The translations under genes and the position numbers were made by a program. From Escherichia phage GoldenSnicker, in sequence record OR896832.1: a stretch of DNA of 64,000 nucleotides. One strand, 5' to 3'. Below, one piece after another: positions 1,048 through 62,077 of the stretch. The first letter of the stretch is position 1. Each line of letters begins with the position of its first letter. The notes beneath the pieces are model-generated. The model searched no databases, was not told where the DNA came from, and saw only the letters and a program-made list of their open reading frames with translations.

Positions 1048-3951
1048 ATGGCAGATTTAAGCAGAATCCAATTTAAACGTACTAGCACTAAAGGCCGTCG
1101 ACCTGATGCTGGTACGATGAATCCGGGGGAATTGGCAATCAACCTTGCGGATCAATATCTTCTTACTAAAAATGATTCCGGTGCTATTATCAATTTAAGT
1201 TGTCCTCCGGTTTATGACAGCGATGTTACAATGGCGGGTAAGGTTAAAGGAAATAATTATATTTTAAGTAAAACCGCTAATTATTTTGAAGACCAAACCG
1301 CGCGAGATCTTAATTATTTTGGTGCGTTTCGACCGAATAATGCTGATGGTTGGTCTAACTTGATTCTGAACATTCCTCATCCCAGCGGTAAAGCACACGG
1401 TCGCGGGTTTGAATTTGAATATGGTTCTAGTTCCTCTCAGGTTAAAACCTATGGCTTTGATAAGGATGGTAACAAGAGATTCAGCTTTCGCATGTATCAC
1501 GAAGGTGATAAACCTACTCCCTCAGAATTGAACGTCTATAGCAAACAAGAAATTGACCGTATGTTTGTTAAGAACGTTAAAATGTCCACTCCTTCCGGTG
1601 AAGCAACCCGTGGTTATTTTAAAATTGCATCCGCAATGATCCCGCAGAGTGGTCGGATGGCGTTTCTGCGAATCTATGGTGGGAACGGATTTAATGTTAA
1701 CTCCTACGATCAGGTGGATTTCCTTGAAATTGTGATTCGTAGTGGTAATAATAACCCTAAAGGCGTTAGTATTGCTGCATATCGTCGAAATTCTTTGAAC
1801 GTCCATGAAGTATTTGCAATTAATACTTCCGGTGATAACTATGACATTTATGTTAACTATGGTCGCTTCACCGATAACGTTATTGTAGAGTTTGGAAAAA
1901 CTGTTGATGTTGCATTGACTGTTCACGATGTTCCTGAATTTTCGGCGACTAAACCAGAAACCGGAACTAAATTTGATGCTCGTGTTATTACCATGTTCAA
2001 CACCGAAAACAAAGCAGGAACGTTGATGTTTGATAATAACTCACAAGCAACCTATGATATTGTGAGCCTTAGCAATGCACCTGATAATAGCCGAAATTAT
2101 CTGCGTAAATTCCGTAGCAAAGCGAATGAAACAATATGGCATGAAACTGTTCAAGGTGATGTGTATCGTTTGGCTACTGGTTCCACCGACCAAAAAGAAG
2201 TATTAAAAATTGTTGGTAGTGATGGTTTATTTGTCAATAGACTTCATCTGCAAGGCAATAACGCGATTCGTATGTGGCGTCCTACTGGTTGTAGTAACTA
2301 TTTTGAATATATGGATCAGCGAGACGGGGCTAATAAACGTCAAGGGTGGTTTGGTTTTGGTTCTACAGAAACCAACGATTTTCAATGGTATAGTGACGAA
2401 GGTAAAAACTTTGTTAAGCTAGAAGCAAGTGGTCAAGTATCTTTAAGCGCAGGTGCAACCAAAATTGTATACACTAATGGTCAATATGTAGCTGCCAATT
2501 CTGATGCATACCGTATGATCTTTGGTAATTATGGTGCATTCTGGCGTAATGACGGCACTAAAGTTTATCTTATGTCTACTGCCGAAAATGATAGATTTGG
2601 TGGCTGGAATGCCTATCGTCCATTCATTTATGATTTAACTTCCGGTAACGTTCAATTAGGCGGTGATGGTAACGAAGATGCATTAACGTTAGAAAGTGCT
2701 TCTCGTGCCGCTCGCTTTAGTAATGACGTTTACATTAAGAAAGGGCTTTTGACTTTCGACGCTGGACGATTAGGATCTCGTGATTTCTTTAAAATCAACC
2801 ATTGGGGTGATAGCAATAACGCCCGTGATAACATTTTGCAGTTTGAAGACAGTCAGGGCGCACATTTTACCACTGAACGTGCTATGGGTACTGGTAACAT
2901 AACAGCACGTTTTAAAGGCTTTGTTCGTGTAGAATCTGGCGAAATTGCATTTGATGCTAATCGGGGGTCGCAGTCTCAATTTACCTTACACACATGGGGT
3001 AACGAGCAACGCAAACAGGTTTTTGAATGTAAGGATGCTACAAGTTATCACTGGTATACTGAACGTACTCAGGGTGGCACTGGACCTATTCTGTTCTGTA
3101 TGGCTGGTAGTCTAAACGTTGGTAGCAATATCACAACAACTGGTGCTGATATTACGTTTAAACGCGCTGGCAATAAGCACATCTGGTTTAGAGATCCAGA
3201 CGGTTTAGAGTTGGGCTTGATGTATTGCGATGACGCTGGTGTTATTCGCTTCCGTGGTCAGAAACAAGCCCAGGCGTGGAAATTTGCAGATAAAATGATC
3301 CAGTTGGAATCTGGTACTGTATCTGGTGGCGGTAATGGCCTGATTCGTGGTGAAGTTGCTGGCGGTAGTTGGGCTAGCTGGCGTGACCGTGCTGCTGGCC
3401 TTATGGTTGGGTGTCCTCAATCAACCGATTCCGCTCATAACATCTGGAAAGCTACTCATTGGGGTAAATATCACATCGCAGCAATGGGTGTACACGTTCC
3501 TAGCGGTACTATCGGTAATGCTATAGCTCGCCTAAACGTTCATGACGCCAACTTTGAATTTAGCGCCTCCGGTGACATGTCGGCAGGGCGTAACGGTTCG
3601 TTTAACGATGTTTATATTCGTTCTGATACTCGCCTTAAAATCAATAAGGAAGAGTATAAGGAGAATGCCACCGATAAAGTTAATCGCTTGACGGTATACA
3701 CCTATGACAAGGTTAAATCTTTAACCGACCGTACTGTCATTGCTCATGAAGTTGGTATTATTGCTCAGGATCTTGAAAAAGAATTGCCGGAAGCCGTAAC
3801 AACTTCTAAGATCGGCGATCCTGATAAGCCAGAAGAGATCTTAACAATTTCTAACTCTGCTGTCAACGCTCTTTTAATTAAGGCGTTTCAGGAAATGAGC
3901 GAAGAACTTAAAGCCGTTAAAGCTGAACTAGCGGAACTTAAAAAGAATTAA
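1048..3951 (+). CDS. 37: long tail fiber distal subunit gp37 with C-terminal intramolecular chaperone-like domain
   Basis: 967 aa; N-terminus MADLSRIQFKRTSTKG..GELAINL matches T4 gp37 N-terminus; C-terminal ~110 aa (..VIAHEVGIIAQDLEKELPEAV..ALLIKAFQEM..coiled coil) resembles S74-type auto-cleaving chaperone domains; RBS AAGGA. Confidence 0.88.
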   Translation: MADLSRIQFKRTSTKGRRPDAGTMNPGELAINLADQYLLTKNDSGAIINLSCPPVYDSDVTMAGKVKGNNYILSKTANYFEDQTARDLNYFGAFRPNNADGWSNLILNIPHPSGKAHGRGFEFEYGSSSSQVKTYGFDKDGNKRFSFRMYHEGDKPTPSELNVYSKQEIDRMFVKNVKMSTPSGEATRGYFKIASAMIPQSGRMAFLRIYGGNGFNVNSYDQVDFLEIVIRSGNNNPKGVSIAAYRRNSLNVHEVFAINTSGDNYDIYVNYGRFTDNVIVEFGKTVDVALTVHDVPEFSATKPETGTKFDARVITMFNTENKAGTLMFDNNSQATYDIVSLSNAPDNSRNYLRKFRSKANETIWHETVQGDVYRLATGSTDQKEVLKIVGSDGLFVNRLHLQGNNAIRMWRPTGCSNYFEYMDQRDGANKRQGWFGFGSTETNDFQWYSDEGKNFVKLEASGQVSLSAGATKIVYTNGQYVAANSDAYRMIFGNYGAFWRNDGTKVYLMSTAENDRFGGWNAYRPFIYDLTSGNVQLGGDGNEDALTLESASRAARFSNDVYIKKGLLTFDAGRLGSRDFFKINHWGDSNNARDNILQFEDSQGAHFTTERAMGTGNITARFKGFVRVESGEIAFDANRGSQSQFTLHTWGNEQRKQVFECKDATSYHWYTERTQGGTGPILFCMAGSLNVGSNITTTGADITFKRAGNKHIWFRDPDGLELGLMYCDDAGVIRFRGQKQAQAWKFADKMIQLESGTVSGGGNGLIRGEVAGGSWASWRDRAAGLMVGCPQSTDSAHNIWKATHWGKYHIAAMGVHVPSGTIGNAIARLNVHDANFEFSASGDMSAGRNGSFNDVYIRSDTRLKINKEEYKENATDKVNRLTVYTYDKVKSLTDRTVIAHEVGIIAQDLEKELPEAVTTSKIGDPDKPEEILTISNSAVNALLIKAFQEMSEELKAVKAELAELKKN

Positions 3952-3992: not shown

Positions 3993-4232
3993 ATGGTCTA
4001 TAATATCGTCATTGGTGCTTTGTCTAATTTCGGAATGAAATTATTGTCAAAGTTAATTAGTGAAAAGATGCTCACTAAAATTTTCTTCTATTGCGCTCGT
4101 CGTCTTGCGGCTTATACCAATACGCCAATTGATGATCGTTTTGTGGAAGAACTTTATAAGGAGTTTAATAAAGATCAGTCAGAAGATAGTAACGAGCAAG
4201 ATAAACCTAGTGATAGTCAACTACCTAAATAA
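3993..4232 (+). CDS. hypothetical small protein (hydrophobic N-terminus, acidic C-terminus)
   Basis: 79-aa ORF with AAGGAG RBS 9 nt upstream; sits between gene 37 and holin where T2/T4 carry gene 38. Confidence 0.5.
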   Translation: MVYNIVIGALSNFGMKLLSKLISEKMLTKIFFYCARRLAAYTNTPIDDRFVEELYKEFNKDQSEDSNEQDKPSDSQLPK

Positions 4233-4265
4233 GAGTACACTGTCATAGTTATCTTAGGGCATTAT

Positions 4266-4922
4266 ATGCAAGTTTCTGAAAAAGGGAAAGACTTTGCTAT
4301 CTCAAATGTCCTGCGCGCTATTTTCACAACTAAAAGCACGGAGTTGCTCGTACTTCGTGTTTTTGCTGCCGTCGTGTTGTCCATATTGGCATTTGTCGTT
4401 TATAGTAAAAACGAGTTATTTGCGCTTTATAAAGAGACTCGTTATGAGACTTATGCTCACATTCTCCAGGTAGAGAAAGACCGCAATTTTGATAATGCAG
4501 CACAGGAGCAGTTACAGATAGTTCATGTGTCGGCTGATGCCGATTTTTCTGCTGTTTTTAGTTTTCGTCCGAAAAACCTAAACTATTTTGTTGATTTGGT
4601 GGCATATGAAGGAAAGCTACCACACACAATCGATGAAAAAAATTTAGGCGGATTCCCTATCAATAAAACGAGTGAAGAATATCGTAGGCATCTTTTAGGT
4701 AAATCATATTTTACCGATAAAGATTTCCAGTATATTCCATCAAGAGAAAAGAAATTAGAGAATATCGATATAGGTTTCATGTATTCTTGTCCTATATTCA
4801 ATCTCGATAATGTCTATTCTGGTAGTATCGCCATTTCATGGAAGAATAAACCGGATATTGACATTGAGAATTTAGATACTCTTTGCAATCAATCTGCCAG
4901 AATCCTCGGAAGGATTAGATAA
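4266..4922 (+). CDS. t: holin T
   Basis: 218 aa, single N-terminal TM segment; EQLQIVHVSADADFSAVFSFRPKNLNYFVDLVAYEGKLP nearly identical to T4 holin T; same length as T4 T. Confidence 0.92.
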   Translation: MQVSEKGKDFAISNVLRAIFTTKSTELLVLRVFAAVVLSILAFVVYSKNELFALYKETRYETYAHILQVEKDRNFDNAAQEQLQIVHVSADADFSAVFSFRPKNLNYFVDLVAYEGKLPHTIDEKNLGGFPINKTSEEYRRHLLGKSYFTDKDFQYIPSREKKLENIDIGFMYSCPIFNLDNVYSGSIAISWKNKPDIDIENLDTLCNQSARILGRIR

Positions 4923-4928
4923 CTTAAA

Positions 4929-4960
4929 GGGGAAGCCTTTCGGCCTCCCCTTCTTTTTAT
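4929..4960. terminator. bidirectional rho-independent terminator between convergent holin and minus-strand operon
   Basis: Hairpin GGGGAAGCC-TTTC-GGCCTCCCC followed by TTCTTTTTATT on + strand; A-rich on other side. Confidence 0.7.
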
Positions 4961-5205
4961 TGGCGCATAGACGCGCCTGAATCGCATTTTGACGCTGTAT
5001 GATGAAAACAGGTAGCGTACCAGTCATTGGCTTGTTTGTCTTCGTCAGAAAACGCGTAATTGCGTTGTATGCCGTTTTCTACTTTGACCAGTGCAATAGC
5101 TGTTTCTGGAAGATCAATCAATCGGACAAAATCACCATCTTCCCACTCTACACGAGCAATATCATAGCCCATCTCAAAGTATACAATCGCTTGTTCTAAT
5201 TTCAT
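4957..5205 (-). CDS. hypothetical protein (82 aa)
   Basis: Track ORF; last gene of minus-strand operon, followed by terminator 4929..4960. Confidence 0.5.
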   Translation of the reverse strand: MKLEQAIVYFEMGYDIARVEWEDGDFVRLIDLPETAIALVKVENGIQRNYAFSDEDKQANDWYATCFHHTASKCDSGASMRQ

Positions 5206-5531
5206 TCTGGAAACTTCCCGTAAACATTCTCTGCCAGCTTACGTGCATCTTTTACAATATCTTTCATGTAATGACTATAATTTTTAGCTAGATCAATGAT
5301 GCAGTCAACAAAGAAGTAATAGCGTCGCAGTGCTACCAGCTCAACATCTTCAAGATGACCATTTTCTCCAATCGCTGAAATATGTTTAAATTCCTTTTGG
5401 ATCGCGTCCATCGCTACATTAACTTCTTTTATAATATCTTTCGTATTATATGCACCTCGACTAATCAAAATTTTGGTTAGGTCTTCTGCTTTTTCGTGAA
5501 AGTTGTCAATTTCAAACTCGATCATAATCAC
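5202..5531 (-). CDS. hypothetical protein (109 aa), paralog of 5640..5972
   Basis: Track ORF; shares helical pattern and C-terminal ..AENVYGKF motif with neighbour. Confidence 0.55.
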   Translation of the reverse strand: MIMIEFEIDNFHEKAEDLTKILISRGAYNTKDIIKEVNVAMDAIQKEFKHISAIGENGHLEDVELVALRRYYFFVDCIIDLAKNYSHYMKDIVKDARKLAENVYGKFPE

Positions 5532-5639
5532 CTCTCATAATTTCACGCTGTTGTTTCAACATTTTTTCGTGGTTTGCTAATTCTATACCTTGTAATAGCA
5601 TAACCAGTGCAATTTTCAATGATTCATCATCTTTCATAA

Positions 5640-5972
5640 TCAAAATTTACCGAAAATATTCTCTGTCATAATTCTTGCTTCGTCGATTATTTTCGTCATG
5701 TTCATGGTGTAGTTATGATCATTTAGTGCCTTAATGACAACGAGCAAGGAATCTAAAAACACTCGATACCGGGTATATTCTACGCTATTTGTGAATACCG
5801 ATGTTTTCTCTACTTTATCGATCAGATAGCCTAAAACCGATAGCGCCTCGTTTACTTCCCTTGTTACTTTATCTGCGCTAAACAACACCGGATAAAGACG
5901 CGGTGTGATTAACCGCGCTGCCTCTTTCAATTCTGTCGCTTTCCATGATTCATATTTGTCATAGTTAAACAT
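5640..5972 (-). CDS. hypothetical protein (110 aa), paralog of 5202..5531
   Basis: Track ORF; C-terminal ..TENIFGKF similar to neighbour. Confidence 0.55.
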   Translation of the reverse strand: MFNYDKYESWKATELKEAARLITPRLYPVLFSADKVTREVNEALSVLGYLIDKVEKTSVFTNSVEYTRYRVFLDSLLVVIKALNDHNYTMNMTKIIDEARIMTENIFGKF

Positions 5973-5984
5973 TGTATAATCTCC

Positions 5985-6317
5985 TTACAGATGAAAACCT
6001 GTTACGATCACCGCATCGATCATACCGCTAGGAATAAACGGTTCACCCTCTTTTATTTCAACTTTGAATTGATGCCATTTCGCTAATACTTCTTCCGGTA
6101 CACCCAGCGATTCGGCGTCTGCTTTAGTTTCATCCATAATCCAACTAGGCTGCATGAGAGCATAGTTTACATAGTCCATTTCTGGGGTCATGTCATCAAT
6201 GTTAATATATTTGCAGTTGACGCGTTTCAGAATTTCAAATTCTTTATTGTCAACCTGTACCATGTATAATTCAGTAGTTTCTGGAATCAGTTCCCACACA
6301 ATCAGTACATTTTTCAT
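5985..6317 (-). CDS. hypothetical protein (110 aa)
   Basis: Track ORF; AAGGAG RBS; tightly packed in operon. Confidence 0.55.
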   Translation of the reverse strand: MKNVLIVWELIPETTELYMVQVDNKEFEILKRVNCKYINIDDMTPEMDYVNYALMQPSWIMDETKADAESLGVPEEVLAKWHQFKVEIKEGEPFIPSGMIDAVIVTGFHL

Positions 6318-6325
6318 AGTTCACC

Positions 6326-6694
6326 TCACTTAACAAAGATTTTCTTTAATGCTTTCAGGATCGTTGCTTCCGGCGCTTCTTCCGGTGGAGGAAGCAATTC
6401 TACCACTTCCTCTTCCAACTCGATATAGTCTACCAGATATTCTACATAGAATGCAAGTGCTTCCATGAAATTAAATGCTACATCCGATTCACCACAAGCG
6501 CCTACATGCATTGTATAAACATCACTGCGATCAAGTTTGTGGATGCTTCCCAGATAGTTCCGGTTATACCAGACTTCCCACACTTTCAGCTTTCCGGTTT
6601 TGGTTGCTGTTTTATAATCGGTTTCGTAATGATGCAATTGACGTTGCAGATCATTGATAATAACACATTTTTCGTAATTATTTTGAATTTCCAT
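6326..6694 (-). CDS. hypothetical protein (122 aa)
   Basis: Track ORF in co-directional array. Confidence 0.5.
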   Translation of the reverse strand: MEIQNNYEKCVIINDLQRQLHHYETDYKTATKTGKLKVWEVWYNRNYLGSIHKLDRSDVYTMHVGACGESDVAFNFMEALAFYVEYLVDYIELEEEVVELLPPPEEAPEATILKALKKIFVK

Positions 6695-6704
6695 GATGTA
6701 ATCC

Positions 6705-6896
6705 TCACTTATCGTTAAGAAGTTCTAAAACTTTCTGTCGTACTTTGTCAATATTAGTTGATTCAAAAACTGTACGGTATCCCCAGCTTTGACCGTATGA
6801 GCGGTTGCAATCTCCATATCCCCATTGTTCAACCTGATAGTATTCAAGGAATGGGTGCTGCCGAACTATGATACCATCGCGATTAAAAATTACCAT
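6705..6896 (-). CDS. hypothetical protein (63 aa)
   Basis: Track ORF in co-directional array. Confidence 0.45.
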   Translation of the reverse strand: MVIFNRDGIIVRQHPFLEYYQVEQWGYGDCNRSYGQSWGYRTVFESTNIDKVRQKVLELLNDK

Positions 6897-6919
6897 AATA
6901 TAATCCTCACGTCAACAAC

Positions 6920-7207
6920 TTATTTTCGGTTGTGGTCGCGATATGTTTTAAAATATCCCTCGTACCACGGTAAAATATCTGGATTTTTACCACTATACAG
7001 ACCTTTAACCATCATGTCAATAAGGCCATCTGGTGTTTGATAGTTTCCAGCTTTTATAAGCTCTCTGATTAAAATCTCTCTGTATATGTCTTTCGGATCT
7101 TCGTAATCAACTTGTATTGTGGTTGTGGTCTCATTCAATTTGGTTTCTGGAGTATCTCGCATTGCATCCCACCAATCTTTTGTGACCTTCATGTTATTGA
7201 ATTGCAT
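6920..7207 (-). CDS. hypothetical protein (95 aa)
   Basis: Track ORF in co-directional array. Confidence 0.5.
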   Translation of the reverse strand: MQFNNMKVTKDWWDAMRDTPETKLNETTTTIQVDYEDPKDIYREILIRELIKAGNYQTPDGLIDMMVKGLYSGKNPDILPWYEGYFKTYRDHNRK

Positions 7208-7218
7208 AATTTAACCTC

Positions 7219-7977
7219 TTACTTGCAAACGTATTGATCTACATCAATTGCGCCACCGAATGTAGGGTGACGTTTTTCAAATCGAATAGTTCCGTCGTTT
7301 GGTTCGAAAACGGAGTATTCATATAGATCTTTCTTGCCAACATTCTTATAAAACCCGCCTTTAGTCATAACGGTTTCTTGTACGTTTGCTTTGTGTACGT
7401 TGTATTCATCAATGTATACAAAATCAACCATCTTCCCATTTTTAATGGTTACTTTAAGATCCCCTGGCTTGTTTCCATATTTTGCATACAGTGGAGCTTC
7501 TTTAATTTTGGTGGAAATTCCATCTTTCATACTCCACTCATAACGAACGGTGCATTGATAGGTAAAAGTTTCGACCTTCTGTTCTTCCACCATTTTTTCT
7601 TCCTGTTTCGGTTGTTCTTCGTCAACCTTCACAGAAGTCTCTGAATCGCTTTCTGACGCGGTTTCTTCTTTAGGTAATACATTCATCAAGTTTTGGATTT
7701 GAGCGTTGTATACAGCCTCCAGTGGCTGAATCTGCCCGATATTGATCATTGTATCACGAACAGTTTTATTCCAGTTGCGTTGCTCTTGTTTCAGAGACGG
7801 ATCAATCTTAACAGCCTTAACATATACTTCATGAAGTTTAGAATCCAGTGCGGAGATTGACTCATTAGCACAAATAAACTTCTCTGATTTTGTAGTGGCT
7901 TTAGCGCAATCAAAGGACGCAGCATTAGCACCGAAAGCAGTAGCGGAAAGAACGATAGCAGCGATAATGTTTTTCAT
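7219..7977 (-). CDS. secreted protein with N-terminal DUF1311/LprI-like (lysozyme-inhibitor-like) domain
   Basis: Signal peptide MKNIIAAIVLSATAFGANA; FDCAKATTKSEKFICANESISALDSKLHEVY..QEQRNWNKTVRD fits C..A.T..E..IC..L..LD..L..Y..QR.W...RD pattern; first gene after promoter 8014..8042. Confidence 0.6.
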   Translation of the reverse strand: MKNIIAAIVLSATAFGANAASFDCAKATTKSEKFICANESISALDSKLHEVYVKAVKIDPSLKQEQRNWNKTVRDTMINIGQIQPLEAVYNAQIQNLMNVLPKEETASESDSETSVKVDEEQPKQEEKMVEEQKVETFTYQCTVRYEWSMKDGISTKIKEAPLYAKYGNKPGDLKVTIKNGKMVDFVYIDEYNVHKANVQETVMTKGGFYKNVGKKDLYEYSVFEPNDGTIRFEKRHPTFGGAIDVDQYVCK

Positions 7978-8013
7978 AATATATTCCTCAGTGTTTTTTG
8001 TCTTGATGGGAGT

Positions 8014-8042
8014 ATCTTACTACTCCCTTAATCCGGTGTCAA
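8014..8042 (-). promoter_or_regulatory. sigma70-type early promoter (TTGACA-17-TAAGAT) with hairpin GGGAGTA-N6-TACTCCC overlapping -10
   Basis: Minus-strand TTGACACCGGATTAAGGGAGTAGTAAGATACTCCC; ~35 nt upstream of ATG at 7977. Confidence 0.6.
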
Positions 8043-8049
8043 CTACTTT

Positions 8050-8205
8050 TTAAATTTCTTCTACAGTAAAGTCTTCAATGTTGTTGTGCTCGGAGAACGT
8101 TGCCAGACCAGCATTCCATGCATCATCCTCAGAGAAGAATACACCGTAACGTTCATATCCTTTAGCGCCTTCAAATTTAATCATTAATTTGTGAGTATGT
8201 TTCAT
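8050..8205 (-). CDS. hypothetical protein (51 aa)
   Basis: Start moved to internal ATG preceded by AAGGAGAATCAAA leader; downstream of promoter 8237..8265. Confidence 0.55.
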   Translation of the reverse strand: MKHTHKLMIKFEGAKGYERYGVFFSEDDAWNAGLATFSEHNNIEDFTVEEI

Positions 8206-8236
8206 TTTGATTCTCCTTCGTTGTCTTGATGGGTTT

Positions 8237-8265
8237 AGTATAGGGGATCGCCGATCCCCTGTCAA
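8237..8265 (-). promoter_or_regulatory. sigma70-type early promoter (TTGACA-17-TATACT) with palindromic GATC-containing spacer
   Basis: Minus-strand TTGACA GGGGATCGGCGATCCCC TATACT; spacer is a perfect inverted repeat with two GATC sites. Confidence 0.7.
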
Positions 8266-8275
8266 CAACTATTTT

Positions 8276-8488
8276 TTAATTTTTACCCGCTCGTGCATTA
8301 ATACGCATTTTCTGCATAGCCATGATCTGGCTTACTGCTTCTTCTTTACGTTCTTGCGTGATAACGTGACCAGATTCCGCAAACTCTCCCGCAACTTCTT
8401 CTACGATCTCGCGAACTTGAGAACGTCCAAAGATGCGGTTTCCTTCGTAGCTCATAAATTCAGTCACTACTTGCTCAATAGATTTCAT
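8276..8488 (-). CDS. hypothetical protein (70 aa)
   Basis: Track ORF; GGAGAATCAC leader upstream of ATG. Confidence 0.55.
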   Translation of the reverse strand: MKSIEQVVTEFMSYEGNRIFGRSQVREIVEEVAGEFAESGHVITQERKEEAVSQIMAMQKMRINARAGKN

Positions 8489-8517
8489 GTGATTCTCCTT
8501 TCGTTTGGTATGGGAGT

Positions 8518-8546
8518 ATGTTACTACTCCCTTATCTTTACGTCAA
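8518..8546 (-). promoter_or_regulatory. sigma70-type early promoter (TTGACG-17-TAACAT) with hairpin GGGAGTA-N6-TACTCCC
   Basis: Minus-strand TTGACGTAAAGATAAGGGAGTAGTAACATACTCCC upstream of ATG at 8488. Confidence 0.55.
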
Positions 8547-8549
8547 CAA

Positions 8550-8711
8550 CTATTTTAAATTATTTTCGACCTTCACCCATTCCGCGTATTCTTGCGCGGC
8601 TACTTTCGGATTTAGTCCGTCTTCGTACATTGCATCAAGTAATTCTTTGTCGGTGGGCTTATACCCTAGATAAGCCTCCACCTGATTTTTCCAAATTTTA
8701 TACCAGTTCAT
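8550..8711 (-). CDS. hypothetical protein (53 aa)
   Basis: Track ORF trimmed to ATG 5 nt after upstream stop (TGA-TAAT-ATG). Confidence 0.45.
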   Translation of the reverse strand: MNWYKIWKNQVEAYLGYKPTDKELLDAMYEDGLNPKVAAQEYAEWVKVENNLK

Positions 8712-8715
8712 ATTA

Positions 8716-8988
8716 TCACCAGTCAAGAGCGCGTGTCTCTGCGTCTTCCCATGCTTGATCCATAACAGCCTTGAAAACATATTCTAGAGTATCATCTTTA
8801 GAGAATCCGAAGACTTTAGACGGAATATCTTCGATTGCTACTCCCGCAACTTCTGCATTACGCGCTTGGCAATAATGCAACTCTAAGTTATCGAGATAGC
8901 GACCGCCTAATTTCTCCATATCATCCCAACATTTCCAGTAACCTACTTTATCTGCAATTGCCAACACTTTGCTGTTTTCGTTGTTCAT
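8716..8988 (-). CDS. hypothetical protein (90 aa)
   Basis: Start at internal ATG preceded by AAGGAGAATCAAAG; downstream of promoter 9020..9048. Confidence 0.55.
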   Translation of the reverse strand: MNNENSKVLAIADKVGYWKCWDDMEKLGGRYLDNLELHYCQARNAEVAGVAIEDIPSKVFGFSKDDTLEYVFKAVMDQAWEDAETRALDW

Positions 8989-9019
8989 CTTTGATTCTCC
9001 TTTTGTTTGGTATGGGTGT

Positions 9020-9048
9020 ATTATGCAATGCTGGATTATGGAAGTCAA
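9020..9048 (-). promoter_or_regulatory. sigma70-type early promoter (TTGACT-17-CATAAT)
   Basis: Minus-strand TTGACTTCCATAATCCAGCATTGCATAAT immediately after terminator 9060..9089. Confidence 0.55.
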
Positions 9049-9059
9049 ACAACTTTTCA

Positions 9060-9089
9060 AATAAAAAAAGCCGACCACAAGGATCGGCT
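9060..9089 (-). terminator. rho-independent terminator
   Basis: Minus-strand AAGCCGATCCTTGTGGTCGGCTTTTTTTATTT after stop of 9100..9495. Confidence 0.75.
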
Positions 9090-9099
9090 TAATAGTCAG

Positions 9100-9495
9100 T
9101 TACTTACTAAATTTCTTTTTGGCTTCGTCTACTGCATGAGATGCCAGCACCGCTGCCGCATGTGCACTTTTATCTGTGTTGCATAGAACACCCAGATAAA
9201 CATCACGCCAAAGTTTAATCATCTCGTAGATCATATCAATATCATTTTCTTGTTTGTTGGCGATGCTATTCGTCGTTATCTGGTAAGGCAACGGCTTGAT
9301 CTGTACTGGTTCCGCCATCGGGCTAATCGGTTTCGGATCAGTCATAATAGGTGCTGTTGTTGGTGGTGTTTTCCATACATCATTATTCCACGGTTTAATC
9401 GTTGTATCGTAAAGTTTATAAGGATTTTTGTCTGGATTAACCATCCAGGCATGATGAGTACCCAAACCATTTGAAGTAATGCGTCGTTCAGTCAT
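9100..9495 (-). CDS. hypothetical protein (131 aa)
   Basis: Track ORF; followed by terminator. Confidence 0.55.
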   Translation of the reverse strand: MTERRITSNGLGTHHAWMVNPDKNPYKLYDTTIKPWNNDVWKTPPTTAPIMTDPKPISPMAEPVQIKPLPYQITTNSIANKQENDIDMIYEMIKLWRDVYLGVLCNTDKSAHAAAVLASHAVDEAKKKFSK

Positions 9496-9697
9496 ACTTT
9501 CCCTCCAAAAATTCTTTCATCAAATAGTCTATCGTTGCTCTGTGTTCTGGTGTGTTTGTTATCTCTGCTAACTTGTTCAGAGATTCAATAGTGATCCGGT
9601 TGGCTTCTTCCATAGTCTCAAAGACCATCGGTACAATCTTTTTATTGTTGTACACGAAAGCCACATAACCGCCTTCTGGATATTCTTTCATAATCAA
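9488..9697 (-). CDS. hypothetical protein (69 aa)
   Basis: Track ORF; overlaps stop of gene 52 (translational coupling). Confidence 0.5.
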   Translation of the reverse strand: MIMKEYPEGGYVAFVYNNKKIVPMVFETMEEANRITIESLNKLAEITNTPEHRATIDYLMKEFLEGKYD

Positions 9698-56023: not shown

Positions 56024-56330
56024 CAAGTTTTCTTCTCTGTACAATTCGTGAAATCTTCCTTTCATGATTTCGTTGGTTCTTGTCTTCACAGTTTACCCAC
56101 TCAACAAGATCTTTACCTAACTCGAAAGCCCATTCTCGGTCTTGCTTTACGTTTTGTAGGTATGGACTTTCTGACACTCTACGAAGTGATGTTGTCGTAA
56201 CAAGAATGATCCCAGGAATGGTCGGATGTTCCTTTCCATATACAATAGGACGCGAGTCACTATCAATACCTTGTAAGAAGGTGTATCCTGAATCACTTAG
56301 AATCATATACTTTTTCATTTCACACATCAC
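55989..56330 (-). CDS. hypothetical protein (113 aa)
   Basis: Track ORF. Confidence 0.45.
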   Translation of the reverse strand: MMCEMKKYMILSDSGYTFLQGIDSDSRPIVYGKEHPTIPGIILVTTTSLRRVSESPYLQNVKQDREWAFELGKDLVEWVNCEDKNQRNHERKISRIVQRRKLDEIKNRILQSM

Positions 56331-56584
56331 AGTTTCCTCAACCAGTTATTCAAGCGAGTAAACCATGATGCTTTTCGTGCTTCTTTTACTTTATGTGCAC
56401 GTAAACCACTGAAACACCATTCATAATCATCACTGAAACATGATTCAACAGGAACACCCGCATTTCGTAGTTCTCTGGTCGTTATCATGAATCCTTGACA
56501 TAATGGGCGACCTTCAACAATGATAGGAAGTTTAACTTTTTCCATGAAAGTATACCCAGCACGGTCAATAATTTCAATCTTCAT
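56327..56584 (-). CDS. hypothetical protein (85 aa), KIEIID paralog
   Basis: MKIEIIDRAGYTFMEKVKLPIIVEGR.. near-duplicate of 56603..56800 N-terminus. Confidence 0.5.
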   Translation of the reverse strand: MKIEIIDRAGYTFMEKVKLPIIVEGRPLCQGFMITTRELRNAGVPVESCFSDDYEWCFSGLRAHKVKEARKASWFTRLNNWLRKL

Positions 56585-56602: not shown

Positions 56603-56800
56603 TTATACCGCCCAGGCTTCATTTGCACGAAAACACCATTCATACTCAGGAAAATAACCTTTAATTGGTACGCCAGCTTTTTGTAGTTCCTGCGTTTCTA
56701 CAAGATAATCAAGCCCATATCGACGACCTTCCACGATGATAGGAAGTTTAACGCCATTCATGAAAGAAAATCCACCGTCATCAATAATTTCAATTTTCAT
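56603..56800 (-). CDS. hypothetical protein (65 aa), KIEIID paralog
   Basis: MKIEIIDDGGFSFMNGVKLPIIVEGR.. Confidence 0.5.
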   Translation of the reverse strand: MKIEIIDDGGFSFMNGVKLPIIVEGRRYGLDYLVETQELQKAGVPIKGYFPEYEWCFRANEAWAV

Positions 56801-57044: not shown

Positions 57045-57475
57045 TTTGTGATCTCCTTATACTCAACACACCATAAGCGGGTAGCCCATGATAAACGCTC
57101 ATAACGCTGGCAGAAATCGGACCATAGATATTGTGTACCGTCTTGCATGGTTGAAATATGCGTTTTCTCACCTACTTTCACGAAAGAAGTATTCGATTTT
57201 GTGATCTCGACCGGAGTATATCCGAAAGCGGGTTCCAAGTCAACATCTGAACTAAATGCCAGTTTAACAGAATTTGTTTTTCTGACCGCTGTCCGGTTTC
57301 CTTCTGGGTACAGCACAGCAGGTTTAGCGCCTAAGCGGATAAACTCAGCATTTTTAATGAACAGAATATCATGATAACCGTCATATTCCGACACTTCCAT
57401 AGTAACAGGAAAATCGATATGTGCTAAACCTGGTAGATCTCGCATATCATGAAATGTAGCCATAATCTTTTTCAT
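57041..57475 (-). CDS. hypothetical protein (144 aa)
   Basis: Start at ATG after GAGGAATATAGA RBS. Confidence 0.5.
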   Translation of the reverse strand: MKKIMATFHDMRDLPGLAHIDFPVTMEVSEYDGYHDILFIKNAEFIRLGAKPAVLYPEGNRTAVRKTNSVKLAFSSDVDLEPAFGYTPVEITKSNTSFVKVGEKTHISTMQDGTQYLWSDFCQRYERLSWATRLWCVEYKEITK

Positions 57476-57485
57476 TCTATATTCC

Positions 57486-57683
57486 TCACTCTTCTGTTTC
57501 ATTTCTTTTATATGGTACTATAACAGGATTAATACAGCAAGCACCAATTACGTTATGAGCACCACAATTTAAACATTTATAGTCATGGAACTTATTAAGG
57601 AATCGACCAAACTCATAGCCGACTAACGCCGCATGTACTTGAGTCTCGATCTCATCCATATCAGCCAATGTTTTAACCTTCAT
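57486..57683 (-). CDS. small zinc-ribbon-like protein (65 aa)
   Basis: Start at ATG after GAGGATTATATT; CLNCG..GACC cysteines. Confidence 0.45.
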   Translation of the reverse strand: MKVKTLADMDEIETQVHAALVGYEFGRFLNKFHDYKCLNCGAHNVIGACCINPVIVPYKRNETEE

Positions 57684-57693
57684 AATATAATCC

Positions 57694-57984
57694 TCAAATT
57701 GTAGTTTTGCGAAGATGGTCATTACATGCTTTTAATGCATCGGTCGCGGTGTCATAGCGAGTATTATCATAGCACCAATAACCATCTGTCAACTGATAAA
57801 TTAATCCATCCTTTTTAGCTTCAATGAAAGACAATTCTTTGAAAGTTTCTACTTTCTTTGCTGATACTCCACGGTCACGGCGCTTATAGAGTTTAGCCAA
57901 AATGCGTTCAGCTTGTTCCTCTTTATCACCAGACAGATCCCAGATGATGTTTCGGATATGCTTGATTAATTGTTCAGTGGTCAT
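57694..57984 (-). CDS. hypothetical protein (96 aa)
   Basis: Track ORF; AAGGAGAATCAAAG leader; downstream of promoter 58014..58041. Confidence 0.55.
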   Translation of the reverse strand: MTTEQLIKHIRNIIWDLSGDKEEQAERILAKLYKRRDRGVSAKKVETFKELSFIEAKKDGLIYQLTDGYWCYDNTRYDTATDALKACNDHLRKTTI

Positions 57985-58013
57985 CTTTGATTCTCCTTAG
58001 TTGGTATGCGTGC

Positions 58014-58041
58014 ATTATAGCATTGTGATTATCTTTGTCAA
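58014..58041 (-). promoter_or_regulatory. sigma70-type promoter (TTGACA-16-TATAAT)
   Basis: Minus-strand TTGACAAAGATAATCACAATGCTATAAT right after terminator 58052..58079. Confidence 0.6.
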
Positions 58042-58051
58042 CACACAAAAA

Positions 58052-58079
58052 CAAAAAAGGCTACCCCGAAGGATAGCCC
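58052..58079 (-). terminator. rho-independent terminator after gp38-like gene
   Basis: Minus-strand GGGCTATCCTTCGGGGTAGCCTTTTTTGTTTTTG. Confidence 0.7.
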
Positions 58080-58085
58080 ATAAAA

Positions 58086-58865
58086 TTACACGCGAGCACC
58101 GTAGATCGTGCCTACTTTATCCCAGCGAGGGGCATTGCCAGTAACAGCCTTACCAGCCGCTCCGCCATTATATTCCGATCCCTGTCCACGGATATTACAT
58201 TTACCACCAGCGCCACCAGCATCACCACCGTTACCGCCATTATATACACCGTTGACAGACCCTTTACCTGGAGCGGAAATAGTACCAGCAGTAGCACCCT
58301 GTTCCATATTAGCAGACCCACCAGCAGCGCCAAATGGACGACCGCCGCCACCTCCAAAAGTCAATTTCATTTGTGGAAAAGGAGACCAGTATCCTCCGCC
58401 ACCACCGCCACCGCCACCGCAAATAGCGCCGTTATTTGTGATGCGTAAGCGTGTGCCTATACCGTTGTTAATTGCATTACCACCAGCACCACCAGCGGAG
58501 TTATTGCCACCATTACCACCACGCCCCCAAACATGAACACCTGCATTAATGATCAATGTTACATATTCGTTTGTTAACGAGCTAGGGAAGTCAAGACAAG
58601 GAACGCCAGTAGATTGGGAAACAATATTACCCGTGATAGTAATTACTACAGGAGTAGATCCTTGTGCTTTCATCCAGTTAATAAGAGTGTCTTTATTGTA
58701 AGAGTTACTAGCACCAATGCTATAATGAATCTCTTTAGAGCGTCCGACCATCGCGGACATATACGCCGGACGACCTAAGCGAACAGCTTGCATTGCGGCG
58801 CTCATCCACCGTTGACCAGTCTCGGACACAGCAGATGATCCTACCCATCCAGAAGATATTGCCAT
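58086..58865 (-). CDS. 38: gp38-like glycine-rich receptor-binding adhesin (T2/T6 type)
   Basis: 259 aa; N-terminus MAISSGWVGSSAVSETGQRWMS.. and glycine-rich motifs (GRGGNGG, GGGGGGGGG, GGGGGRPFG, GGNGGDAGGAGG) ending ..TIYGARV, matching recalled T2 gp38 architecture; RBS GAGGAAATTTT. Confidence 0.7.
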   Translation of the reverse strand: MAISSGWVGSSAVSETGQRWMSAAMQAVRLGRPAYMSAMVGRSKEIHYSIGASNSYNKDTLINWMKAQGSTPVVITITGNIVSQSTGVPCLDFPSSLTNEYVTLIINAGVHVWGRGGNGGNNSAGGAGGNAINNGIGTRLRITNNGAICGGGGGGGGGYWSPFPQMKLTFGGGGGRPFGAAGGSANMEQGATAGTISAPGKGSVNGVYNGGNGGDAGGAGGKCNIRGQGSEYNGGAAGKAVTGNAPRWDKVGTIYGARV

Positions 58866-58878
58866 AAAATTTCCTCAC

Positions 58879-58901
58879 AAGAAAAGCCCCATTTAAGGGG
58901 C
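58879..58901 (-). terminator. rho-independent terminator immediately upstream of gp38-like gene
   Basis: Minus-strand GCCCCTTAAATGGGGCTTTTCTTG after stop of 58920..59141. Confidence 0.65.
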
Positions 58902-58919
58902 ATTGATTGATAATATTAC

Positions 58920-59141
58920 TTAGATGATCTCTGCTTCACCATTCAGGAAGAAAGACCATGTTTTGTTAGGATAGCGAAGCGCCCATGATTCAGCGGTTTT
59001 AACACCAGCTTCGAACAATTGACGGCTGGTTACTTTAGCCATACCATCTTCGATGGCAACGTTTTCAATAATCATCGGGTACTTAGCGCCACGCATGAAA
59101 CCGAAGCCAGCGGAAGATTTGATAATTTTAACCGTTGCCAT
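58920..59141 (-). CDS. hypothetical protein (73 aa), distant KIEIID-family relative
   Basis: MATVKIIKSSAGFGFMRGAKYPMIIENV.. ; AGGAGAATCAAAA leader; downstream of promoter 59183..59211. Confidence 0.5.
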   Translation of the reverse strand: MATVKIIKSSAGFGFMRGAKYPMIIENVAIEDGMAKVTSRQLFEAGVKTAESWALRYPNKTWSFFLNGEAEII

Positions 59142-59182: not shown

Positions 59183-59211
59183 ATTATGCAATAACACCGG
59201 ATCGCTGTCAA
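59183..59211 (-). promoter_or_regulatory. sigma70-type promoter (TTGACA-17-CATAAT)
   Basis: Minus-strand TTGACAGCGATCCGGTGTTATTGCATAAT. Confidence 0.55.
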
Positions 59212-60460: not shown

Positions 60461-60496
60461 AAAACGAAAAAGCCACCCTTTCGGATGGCTTTTTGA
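60461..60496. terminator. rho-independent terminator (symmetric A-run/T-run)
   Basis: AAAAACGAAAAAGCCACCCTTTCGGATGGCTTTTTG; ~230 nt downstream of stop of 60725..61123. Confidence 0.7.
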
Positions 60497-60724
60497 TTAT
60501 ATTTTATTCACGTCCATTTGTATAGTAGTGTTTGAATCGACCTTTGCTAAACTAGTTAAACATAGTAACCAATTCACCATCCCTTTCCAATGATAACACT
60601 TCCTCGTCTTAGACGGGTCTTCCGATTCGGCAGTAATTGAACACGCGAAAGTATGAGGAAGCCAAATAGTTGTGTTAATGCTAGTATTCTTTTACTTCTG
60701 GTATGCATCCCACGGTGACTAACA

Positions 60725-61123
60725 TTAAGACAGTCGAGTGAGTTTATAAATTGTTTTAAAACATAGAGCTTTGATATCGTCTAAAACGCTCTGTAACGAG
60801 CTATCAACATCATTATAAATCTCACTAGCCATTTGCGTTAACTCTTGCAAATAGGCAATTTCGCTAATCTCCTTGCGGACGACCAACGTTGGCTGATAAC
60901 GACCAGTGATCCCAATATTGGTTTCAGTGAAATCATCAACCAATTCTTGCATTTCAAGATAGAACTCTTCTAGAGCCTTATGTTTTGCATAAGATCCAGG
61001 ACCAGTTACCCCAAAATGCGCAGAATGCATATAAGTAACACTCATCAGACATTCACCGATAAAGCGGTCAACTTTATTAGCTTTCCCCTCTTCGGACGTC
61101 TTTCGAAAATCACTGAATTTCAT
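60725..61123 (-). CDS. Dps/ferritin-like four-helix-bundle protein (132 aa)
   Basis: Start at MKFSDFRK after GGAGAATCGAGAAC; ..YMHSAHFGVTGPGSYAKHKALEEFY..ELVDDFTE.. resembles Dps signature H..W..G..F..H..EE. Confidence 0.45.
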   Translation of the reverse strand: MKFSDFRKTSEEGKANKVDRFIGECLMSVTYMHSAHFGVTGPGSYAKHKALEEFYLEMQELVDDFTETNIGITGRYQPTLVVRKEISEIAYLQELTQMASEIYNDVDSSLQSVLDDIKALCFKTIYKLTRLS

Positions 61124-61412
61124 GTTCTCGATTCTCCATATTATGCAACATAACAAACTGTTGTGCGGCATATTCCCCCATAATAAAACACTGCTTAGAA
61201 TCCATACATTTACTACGAGCATACATCTTCATAATATGGGCATGAAATTTCTGGCTGGTTTCAATGGAAGGAGATATTTTGTTTACATATACTATCATTG
61301 CACCGTCGAAATAATCAGTAAAATCACCAGTTGGATCATATTGATCAGCACTGACACTTCCGACCGCAGTCAAGCATATTGCCGCTGTTAGAGTTTTACG
61401 AATAAATGACAT
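61110..61412 (-). CDS. secreted/periplasmic protein (100 aa)
   Basis: Signal peptide MSFIRKTLTAAICLTAVGSVSA; TATAAATA late-promoter-like motif ~33 nt upstream. Confidence 0.5.
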   Translation of the reverse strand: MSFIRKTLTAAICLTAVGSVSADQYDPTGDFTDYFDGAMIVYVNKISPSIETSQKFHAHIMKMYARSKCMDSKQCFIMGEYAAQQFVMLHNMENREHEIQ

Positions 61413-61445: not shown

Positions 61446-61453
61446 TATTTATA
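61446..61453 (-). promoter_or_regulatory. T4 late-promoter-like TATAAATA box
   Basis: Minus-strand TATAAATA (plus tatttata) 33 nt upstream of ATG at 61412. Confidence 0.4.
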
Positions 61454-61480: not shown

Positions 61481-62077
61481 TTATTTGGTAGTACCGTCAA
61501 TAAAATGTTTACGGCACACAGAGACATATTTATCCTCTGCACCAACTTCTATTTGAGCACCATCGCGAATAACATTACCCTCTTTATCTACACGAAGGAC
61601 CATTGTTGCTTTCTTGCCACAATGACAAATACCCTTCATTTCGACCAGTTTATCAGCAAATGCCATTAATGCCGCAGATCCTTCAAATAGATTGCCCTGA
61701 AAGTCGGTGCGAAGGCCATAGCACAGTACAGGGATATTTGCATCATCGACAAGCGCACACAAGCCTAAAACATGCTCTTTAGTCATAAATTGGGCTTCAT
61801 CTACAAATACAGCATCAGGACGCCATCGATCCGGTCTACGCTTACCTAACGATTCACGATAAACCAAATCGAAAAGATCATCCGATTTAGTGAAGGTGAT
61901 CGCTGGAGCACTTAGACCAATTCGGGAAACAACTTCACTTTCTGAATCTCGATTATCAATCGCTGGCTTAAGAATTAATACTCGCATATCACGTTCGGTA
62001 TAGTTATAAGCACTTTGTAACAGAGAAGTTGATTTGCCAGCGTTCATAGATGCATAGTAGAAATATAGTTGCGCCAT
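61481..62077 (-). CDS. tk: thymidine kinase
   Basis: 198 aa; Walker A MNAGKST, C-terminal CHCGKKA zinc ribbon; size as T4 Tk. Confidence 0.88.
   Translation of the reverse strand: MAQLYFYYASMNAGKSTSLLQSAYNYTERDMRVLILKPAIDNRDSESEVVSRIGLSAPAITFTKSDDLFDLVYRESLGKRRPDRWRPDAVFVDEAQFMTKEHVLGLCALVDDANIPVLCYGLRTDFQGNLFEGSAALMAFADKLVEMKGICHCGKKATMVLRVDKEGNVIRDGAQIEVGAEDKYVSVCRKHFIDGTTK

Follow-up and report, generated by a model that had tools for sequence, protein, structure and literature searches.

The feature under study lies on the minus strand of the window, by which we mean the whole 64-kb stretch of DNA that was analysed. At 58086..58865 an ORF with an ATG start codes for a 259-aa product which ORF, Pfam, PHROG and PDB matches identify as gene 38 (g38), the tip adhesin of the long tail fibre of the T2/T6/S16 type. 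As read from the sequence, a Shine-Dalgarno motif (SD), GAGGA, stands 6 nt before the ATG (58872..58876, minus strand). The neighbours of g38 are small minus-strand ORFs behind sigma70-type promoters. On its upstream side lies a 73-aa early ORF, the homologue of RB49 ORF080 (58920..59141, minus strand; phrog_7345, of unknown function and hypothetical in GEC-3S and Phi1), and further upstream on the same strand are rI (61110-61412) and tk (61481-62077); the next ORF on the downstream side occupies 57694-57984.

The N-terminus, the Gly-rich runs and the terminal ..TIYGARV, from which a T2/T6-type gp38 architecture had been proposed, are all present in the sequence, and this assignment was borne out by the database comparisons. 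The Pfam family GP38 (PF05268) matched aa 45-259 over its whole model (profile 1-218/218, E=6.3e-73), and Gp38_N (PF21721), the N-terminal gp37-attachment domain, matched aa 1-40 over profile positions 1-40/40 (E=3.9e-18). Furthermore, PHROG 2056 ('tail fiber protein; host specificity') aligned end to end with E=2.9e-102, the solved structure of Salmonella phage S16 gp38 (6F45_D) aligned with aa 1-257 (E=2e-50), and the structure of a GFP-gp38 fusion (9v85) aligned with aa 35-259. In a three-way alignment of gp38 proteins the Gly-rich motifs were invariant and the intervening segments variable. The similarity to S16 gp38 is significant beyond the Gly runs and is not a low-complexity artefact, as the match extends over the non-glycine N-terminal half. 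With S16 gp38 (6F45 chain D) the product shares the order of domains, N-terminal attachment followed by a Gly-rich receptor-binding domain, although the loops differ and the coliphage alleles are clearly closer to the product than S16.

The fibre locus is found at the other end of the window and on the opposite strand, 54.1 kb from g38, in line with the distance of about 54 kb given in the original prediction. Gene 37 (1048..3951, plus strand; PHROG 1699, E=3e-182) encodes the distal half-fibre of 967 aa, the partner of gp38, with Gp34_trimer and Peptidase_S74 domains. The usual position of g38, immediately 3' of gene 37, is taken here by the 79-aa ORF known from RB49 as Dc5 (3993..4232, plus strand; phrog_402, unknown function), and the holin gene t follows (4266..4922, plus strand; PF11031, E=4.5e-61), so that the order of gene 37, 79-aa ORF and holin had been described correctly. 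A small ORF in place of g38 in RB49 was already remarked by Trojet 2011 (PMC3157838); in Krischviruses with g38 adjoining g37 the 79-aa ORF stays downstream of g38. For comparison, the best gp37 C-terminal match ended no more than about 110 nt upstream of gp38 in 30 of 34 gp38 loci from IMG/VR.

The chaperone-like domain that had been noticed on gp37 is indeed there, namely an intramolecular chaperone of the Peptidase_S74 type at aa 859-918 (3622..3801, plus strand; PF13884, E=9.8e-11). Its reading as an alternative to gp38 did not stand, since gp37 proteins with an adjoining g38 share the domain. The C-terminal 110 aa of gp37 align with gp37 of Tequatrovirus IME339, in which g38 directly follows g37, and it has been described that the S74 domain is cleaved off gp37 first and that gp38 then caps the fibre (PMC9569957). 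The S74 domain is thus the normal partner of gp38 and not its substitute. Among solved structures gp37 matched gp34-like trimerisation domains only, and not the S16 gp37 tip of 6F45.

Only one gp38 homologue exists within the window, and in related records 791 places were counted in 783 records, i.e. one gp38 per genome as a rule. The proposal of a second receptor-binding module consequently had to be given up. In its most explicit form, gp38 would be an auxiliary receptor-binding protein of a fibre with dual specificity, the other receptor-binding domain being carried by gp37 itself; this would agree with the 79-aa ORF, rather than g38, coming after the gp37 gene and with the earlier view of the gp37 C-terminal domain as self-sufficient. 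However, that C-terminus is a Peptidase_S74 chaperone and not a needle of the T4 type, the same domain is found where g38 adjoins g37, and gp38 of RB49 is the fibre adhesin to which host range maps, by the mutations E230K and Y231S (Efimov et al. 2022, PMC9569957). Together with the count of one gp38 per genome this makes an auxiliary role very unlikely. The gp38 of the window is best read as the sole adhesin of the fibre tip.

Two hairpins bracket g38, as had been predicted. Downstream of the gene a strong rho-independent terminator with a 9-bp stem and a T-run was found at 58079-58058 (58058..58079, minus strand; -14.7 kcal/mol, z=-3.92, 0/200 shuffles folding as well); upstream, the terminator scan gave a weak GC hairpin of five GC pairs, GCCCC-ttaaat-GGGGC, followed by TTTTCTT, at 58901-58886 (58886..58901, minus strand; -13 kcal/mol, z=-1.46). 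Both hairpins have been tabulated as terminators in RB49, the downstream one as 'ORF078c<--38' with confidence 100 and the upstream one as '38<--ORF080c' with confidence 90 and a stem of 5 bp (Nolan et al. 2006). A search with Rfam at gathering thresholds over the whole window returned 0 matches. The upstream hairpin ends 20 nt before the ATG, and since this gap also holds the SD there is no room for a promoter, which agrees with the earlier remark that none was recognisable between the hairpin and the ribosome-binding site.

For comparison with this hairpin, g37-g38 junctions and other ORF starts of the same loci were scanned. A GC hairpin whose end lies 10-18 nt upstream of the g38 start codon, with an SD behind it, was present at 20 of 32 junctions, as against 22 of 432 (5%) other ORF starts; most of the 12 junctions lacking it leave hardly any spacer, or none, between g37 and g38. 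The g38 leader of the window resembles the Tequatrovirus g38 leader AAGGAttttTAATG, and the leader of the promoter-early stem-loop (PeSL) elements, GGAGAATCAAA, is absent from it. Judged from the junctions, the upstream hairpin is probably the inter-cistronic g37/g38 hairpin, kept at the new site. We infer that it attenuates transcription and does not insulate the early array.

The nearest upstream promoter, TTGACA-17-CATAAT (59183..59211, minus strand), matches the consensus at 11 of 12 positions and is an annotated promoter in GEC-3S. The late-promoter motif TATAAATA occurs in exact form only once in the 64-kb window (5.7 expected), before rI and 2.6 kb upstream of g38 (61446..61453, minus strand; motif search). 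On the minus strand within these 2.6 kb neither (T/A)ATAAATA nor TATAAATA, exact or with one mismatch, was found nearer to g38. The counterpart of the rI site in RB49, Pl:48756, is the only minus-strand one among 12 of the 17 late promoters predicted there. Inspection by eye gave nothing convincing as a MotA-box middle promoter for g38. RB49-type phages are without MotA, and AsiA is not listed for RB49; in Tequatroviruses the genes of both lie between t and gene 52, and among seven ORFs tested in that interval of the window Pfam gave no match to AsiA or MotA.

This arrangement suggests that transcripts of g38 would start at the sigma70-type promoter (59211-59183) and run through the weak hairpin ahead of the gene; late in infection the late promoter of rI may contribute as well. 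Read-through has to be assumed, as the upstream hairpin with its T-run was scored as a terminator by two programs, and we regard the early promoter as the source of g38 transcripts with evenly balanced confidence; the other candidate source is the late promoter of rI, likewise by read-through. Since only six gp38 copies per virion are needed, early read-through should suffice. A relic, silent or in decay and shut in by its two terminators, would present the same features: flanking hairpins, a stretch from hairpin to ATG that is free of promoters, and no late promoter within 2.6 kb. That g38 is such a relic is still less probable than an auxiliary role, given that an intact ORF with a good SD is kept in 43 genomes, that it varies mainly in the receptor loops, as an adhesin in use should, and that RB49 gains hosts by point mutations in gp38 (PMC9569957). 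Furthermore, g38 or a matching extra length stands beside g37 in eight of the 13 genomes without the displaced gene that are described below; in one more the literature places gp38 near the holin, and three possess another small-ORF module.

In the GenBank annotations of GEC-3S, JSE, teqsoen and others the gene product is named 'distal long tail fiber assembly catalyst', which would make gp38 an assembly chaperone of the T4 type. We attach next to no probability to this function, because a Pfam scan at E<=1 gave GP38 and Gp38_N only and no tail-fibre assembly or chaperone family, the S16 adhesin structure matches the product along its whole length, and the adhesin is unrelated to the T4 version of the gene (Trojet 2011, PMC3157838); the label goes back to the numbering of genes in T4. 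At the same locus of Phi1 the annotation reads '38, gp38 distal long tail fiber adhesin'.

Comparison of the 3-kb segment 57000-60000 with phage records gave 75 matches; in 43 of them collinearity extends across 80% of the query or more, with identities of 93.9-98.4% among the matches listed for GenBank genomes. The best matches are all Krischvirus: Shigella phage Sf20 (98.4%), JEP8 and GEC-3S, then RB49 and JSE (~94%). The gp38 proteins of Sf20, JEP8 and GEC-3S, at the same locus, are 98.5-99.2% identical to that of the window at the aa level and carry the same chimeric allele; they differ by a few substitutions only and represent in practice the same gene. In RB49, Phi1 and JSE the locus between ORF080 and ORF078, downstream of tk/rI, is likewise shared, with flanks of 97-100% nt identity, the same N-terminal domain, the two hairpins and the g37-Dc5-t arrangement, but g38 itself is only ~85% (nt) and 87% (aa) identical and its loops (aa ~160-240) belong to another allele class. 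The T2/T6-type g38 genes of Tequatroviruses such as IME339 and Sf21 are of the same family (IME339 gp38 is 88% identical) and have a GC hairpin and SD before the gene; unlike the gene of the window, they are on the late strand, with g37 and t as immediate neighbours, and the first ~45 residues of their products differ, matching another gp37 tip.

Counts of informative sites resolved the allele into two parts. Over nt 480-719 of g38, 76 sites were IME339-like and 8 Phi1-like, and identity to IME339 at the nt level reached 98% in windows of 60 nt, whereas nt 0-299 and 720-779 gave 93 Phi1-like against 3 IME339-like sites. The hypervariable receptor-loop patch at 58146..58386 (minus strand) is hence of the IME339 type in an otherwise RB49/Phi1-type gene. 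A Tequatrovirus-like patch might be expected of a misassembly in which a T2-like fragment had been joined to an RB49-like backbone, an explanation with virtually no remaining probability: both flanks and both gene ends are continuous and 95-100% Phi1-like, the same chimeric allele occurs in at least 14 independent genomes at ≥95% aa identity, the patch borders lie in or near Gly-rich motifs, which the literature proposes as recombination sites, and the segment is collinear in 43 independent GenBank genomes.

Similar combinations are found in gp38 proteins that adjoin g37, that of kvi joining a T2-type N-terminus to RB49-type loops and that of MIZ4 having loops of the window type. Given these two cases and the mosaic allele of the window, the sequences suggest that loop sets move between genera and between both loci and that the N-terminal ~45 residues stay with the matching gp37. 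Recombination sites in the adhesin gene have been proposed at its Gly-rich motifs. A model of motif-mediated swapping was reportedly put forward in 1998 by Tetart. The movement of loop sets fits the motif-mediated swapping model (Tetart 1998, Trojet 2011).

The displaced position of a genuine T2/S16-type adhesin gene in the early-gene array, away from gene 37, as stated in the original prediction, is thus real. It is also already known, in the literature since 2002, and ordinary for this phage group: Trojet 2011 (PMC3157838), citing Desplats 2002, describes g38 of RB49 as displaced with a small ORF in its slot, both terminators are on record for RB49, and gene 38 is annotated at the Phi1 locus. 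Among Krischviruses, gp38 was furthermore reported away from the holin in FL37 and FL38, and not so in FL04, FL15 and FL20 (Lutz et al. 2025, PMC12032242).

The borders of the displaced segment could be derived from relatives in which it is missing. The IMG/VR contig 3300045988_033703, of Krischvirus backbone, has no g38 at the displaced site: its positions 3-1526 correspond to 60436-58920 of the window and positions 1564-2101 to 57471-58008 in reverse order (58008-57471; ~97%). Between the matched flanks it has 37 nt, forming one PeSL (TTGACA CGGGGAGAAATCCCCG TATAAT). As the flank matches stop at 58920 and 58008, the unit that is polymorphic in this empty-site comparison is 58009..58919 (minus strand), 911 bp comprising the hairpin, SD, g38, terminator and promoter. 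The uninterrupted empty site was also found in at least 13 GenBank Krischviruses, and the cassette splits it in ~43. The left break lies directly after the stop codon of ORF080, the right one 3' of the -10 box and ahead of the start codon of the next ORF.

The promoter at the right end, for the next ORF (57694-57984), is a perfect, TG-extended early promoter of the sigma70 type, TTGACA-16-TATAAT (58014..58041, minus strand; 12/12 match), and is annotated as a promoter in GEC-3S. Together with the terminator 3' of g38 it constitutes a PeSL, which aligns with the other PeSLs of the window and has the common leader AGGAGAATCAAAgATG; the PeSL leader GGAGAATCAAA, with 11 minus-strand occurrences where 2.1 were expected, is shared by the right end of the unit. 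Shuffling of PeSL cassettes has been described in RB49 and Phi1, with crossovers mapped between the -10 box and the ATG (Arbiol et al. 2010, PMC2839356). Like those cassettes, the 911-bp unit stands in a hyperplastic early array, ends in a terminator, sigma70 promoter and shared leader, has its right break between -10 and ATG, and is found in some close relatives and missing from others, the empty site holding one PeSL in the contig as in the 13 GenBank genomes. In contrast to them, it carries an essential virion gene and not an ORFan, and this gene has retained a leader of its own that is not of the PeSL type. A full PeSL forms the right border; because the left flank has a stem-loop and no promoter, the unit is not a textbook two-PeSL cassette. 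The suggestion that g38 was possibly moved by cassette-mediated shuffling gained plausibility from the indel polymorphism and the single PeSL at the empty site, and g38 sits in the hyperplastic early-gene array as a 911-bp unit which, we propose, behaves like a PeSL-bounded cassette. All in all, we hold with high confidence that 58086..58865 is gene 38 of an RB49-like (Krischvirus) coliphage, encoding its single receptor-binding adhesin of the long tail fibre, in a displaced 911-bp unit that resembles a PeSL cassette.

None of the 13 empty-site sister genomes carries the displaced g38, and most have an imported g37-g38 module in its stead; eight of them show g38 or a matching extra length beside g37. 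In kvi and MIZ4 the fibre locus has the same order as in contig 3300045988_033703, i.e. g36, g37' (926 aa in the contig, with S74 domain), g38' (266 aa), the 79-aa ORF and t. An adhesin or a second tail-fibre protein is annotated at the g37 locus of G5211, G2494, KMB43 and FL20, the unannotated LF73P4 has a matching extra 0.7 kb there, and FL04, whose empty-site match ends at the end of the record, also shows an adhesin or extra length at this locus. For a ninth genome, FL15, gp38 was reported near the holin (Lutz 2025, PMC12032242). Three of the 13 carry a different trio of small ORFs, and Skers was left out of this examination.

These three are the Krischviruses G37-3, G2248 and UPWr_E1, which have the empty site and no gp38 beside g37; in G37-3 tblastn at E<=1 did not find gp38 anywhere in the genome. 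Between g37 and the 79-aa ORF they carry three tandem paralogous ORFs of ~100 aa (24-40% identity), with no Pfam match and one marginal PHROG match (E=0.02). The trio was met in 3 of 50,697 phage records, and KFS-EC has a fused remnant of it together with a displaced g38. It may be a new fibre-tip module.

In the contig, the C-terminal part of g37' and g38' are 88-91% identical at the nt level to phages such as Tequatrovirus Sf21 and are therefore regarded as an import. In the empty-site genomes with g38 beside g37, homology to the window resumes at 3938-3940, and 3' of the g38' stop codon stands (CCGTT)AAAAAGAATTAA, the 3' end of the RB49-type gene 37 (final 12-14 nt, counting the stop codon; window 3938-3951). 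On the strength of the sequence this remainder may be read as a scar: a g37C-g38 module would have replaced the body of a gene 37 that already adjoined the 79-aa ORF, and the redundant displaced g38 would then have been lost. We consider it likely that the 'normal' g37-g38 order in these Krischviruses is secondary.

With regard to the fibre itself, homology and the published work on S16 and RB49 point to the following steps. The gp37 protein would form trimers assisted by the Peptidase_S74 chaperone domain at its own C-terminus, and this domain would later be cleaved off; one gp38 molecule would then dock on the exposed gp37 tip via its N-terminal domain (aa 1 to ~45), and the loops between the Gly-rich motifs would be presented to a receptor of the outer membrane. 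For the RB49 allele of gp38 this receptor is OmpA along with some O-antigens. More tentatively, and in our view rather doubtful, hairpin, SD and g38 could form a self-contained, relocatable adhesin cassette whose expression is uncoupled from the late tail-fibre operon via sigma70 read-through. Krischviruses would then switch among at least three solutions for the fibre tip: g38 in its displaced position; a g37C-g38 module imported from a Tequatrovirus, in genomes that have lost the cassette; and the gp38-less trio of paralogous ~100-aa ORFs.

In most T-even-like phages, a group that supplies several members of therapy cocktails, host range is determined chiefly by gp38, and RB49, Phi1, JSE and GEC-3S are relatives of the phage in this window. 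Annotation pipelines or receptor predictors that search beside gene 37 would miss an RB49-type adhesin or mislabel it as 'assembly catalyst'. To the known displacement the present analysis adds the borders of the cassette, the empty-site genomes, the scar and the retained hairpin. Together these provide an example, concrete and testable, of a virion gene that is essential and seems to behave as shuffled cassettes do.

Comparison of the displaced adhesin gene g38 (58086-58865, minus strand) with related phages unveiled a mosaic gene, whose receptor-loop region (58146-58386) is of the Tequatrovirus type represented by IME339, while the surrounding gene is of the RB49 type. The same loop sets, paired with another N-terminus, were found in the g38 genes located next to gene 37 in the Krischviruses kvi and MIZ4. 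Furthermore, in Krischviruses with g38 beside gene 37 the final 12-14 nt of an RB49-type gene 37, including its stop codon, persist as non-coding sequence directly 3' of the g38 stop codon. This remnant, which corresponds to 3938-3951 of the window, is located at 5780-5800 in locus L019 and at 4831-4860 in both L040 and L041. Read as a recombination scar, it suggests that the canonical g37-g38 order in those Krischviruses is secondary.

At the displaced site, small early ORFs around g38 (56327-56584, 56603-56800 and 58920-59141, all minus strand) resemble paralogues in a comparison made by eye alone (MKIEIID..G(Y/F)(T/S)FM..KLPIIVEG.., MATVKIIKSSAGFGFMRGAKYPMIIEN..); the last of them adjoins g38 upstream. 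The leader GGAGAATCAAA of the promoter-early stem-loop (PeSL) element, comprising the SD and spacer, occurs 11 times in the window versus 2.1 expected, exclusively on the minus strand (8206, 8488, 8990, 15878, 22147, 45985, 51793, 55681, 57986, 59143 and 60397), and is a marker of GoldenSnicker's repeated early-promoter cassettes. The late-promoter octamer TATAAATA is depleted in the window as a whole, with one exact copy versus 5.7 expected and 74 one-mismatch variants versus 127 expected. The sole exact copy lies in front of rI (61446-61453, minus strand). A stretch of ~230 nt (60495-60724, minus strand), flanked on one side by the ORF that follows rI and on the other by a strong terminator (60494-60467), is free of listed minus-strand ORFs of at least 80 aa and gave no Rfam match; it could correspond to an extended 3' UTR or to a small RNA.

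In Tequatroviruses the genes for AsiA and MotA are both located between the holin gene t and gene 52, whereas no Pfam match to either protein was obtained for the seven ORFs tested from the corresponding part of the window (4923-9693). This result is consistent with the published lack of MotA-dependent middle-mode transcription in RB49. Separately, an 82-aa ORF directly after the holin gene (4957-5205, minus strand) gave a match that passes the curated cut-off (E=4.4e-6) to PF11195, a domain of Tad2-like type (Thoeris anti-defence 2), and a 252-aa ORF (7219-7977, minus strand) matched the domain of the lysozyme inhibitor LprI (PF07007, E=3.1e-5).

In the Krischviruses G37-3, G2248 and UPWr_E1, gp38 is absent from both the g37-adjacent and the displaced locus, and for G37-3 (MK327941.1) tblastn at E<=1 detected it nowhere in the genome. 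In these three phages gene 37 is separated from the 79-aa ORF by a tandem trio of paralogous ORFs of ~100 aa (4811-5717 in the G37-3 locus), which share 24-40% identity and a common FDIPNGW motif. The trio ORFs gave no Pfam match and a single marginal PHROG match (E=0.02), and were found in just 3 of 50,697 phage records. We regard the trio as a candidate for a new fibre-tip (adhesin) module. In KFS-EC (MH560358.1), paralogues 1 and 3 are fused into one 107-aa ORF (4049-4372 of its locus), and the same genome carries the displaced g38 cassette. With both features combined, KFS-EC may be an intermediate or a recombinant between fibre-tip types.
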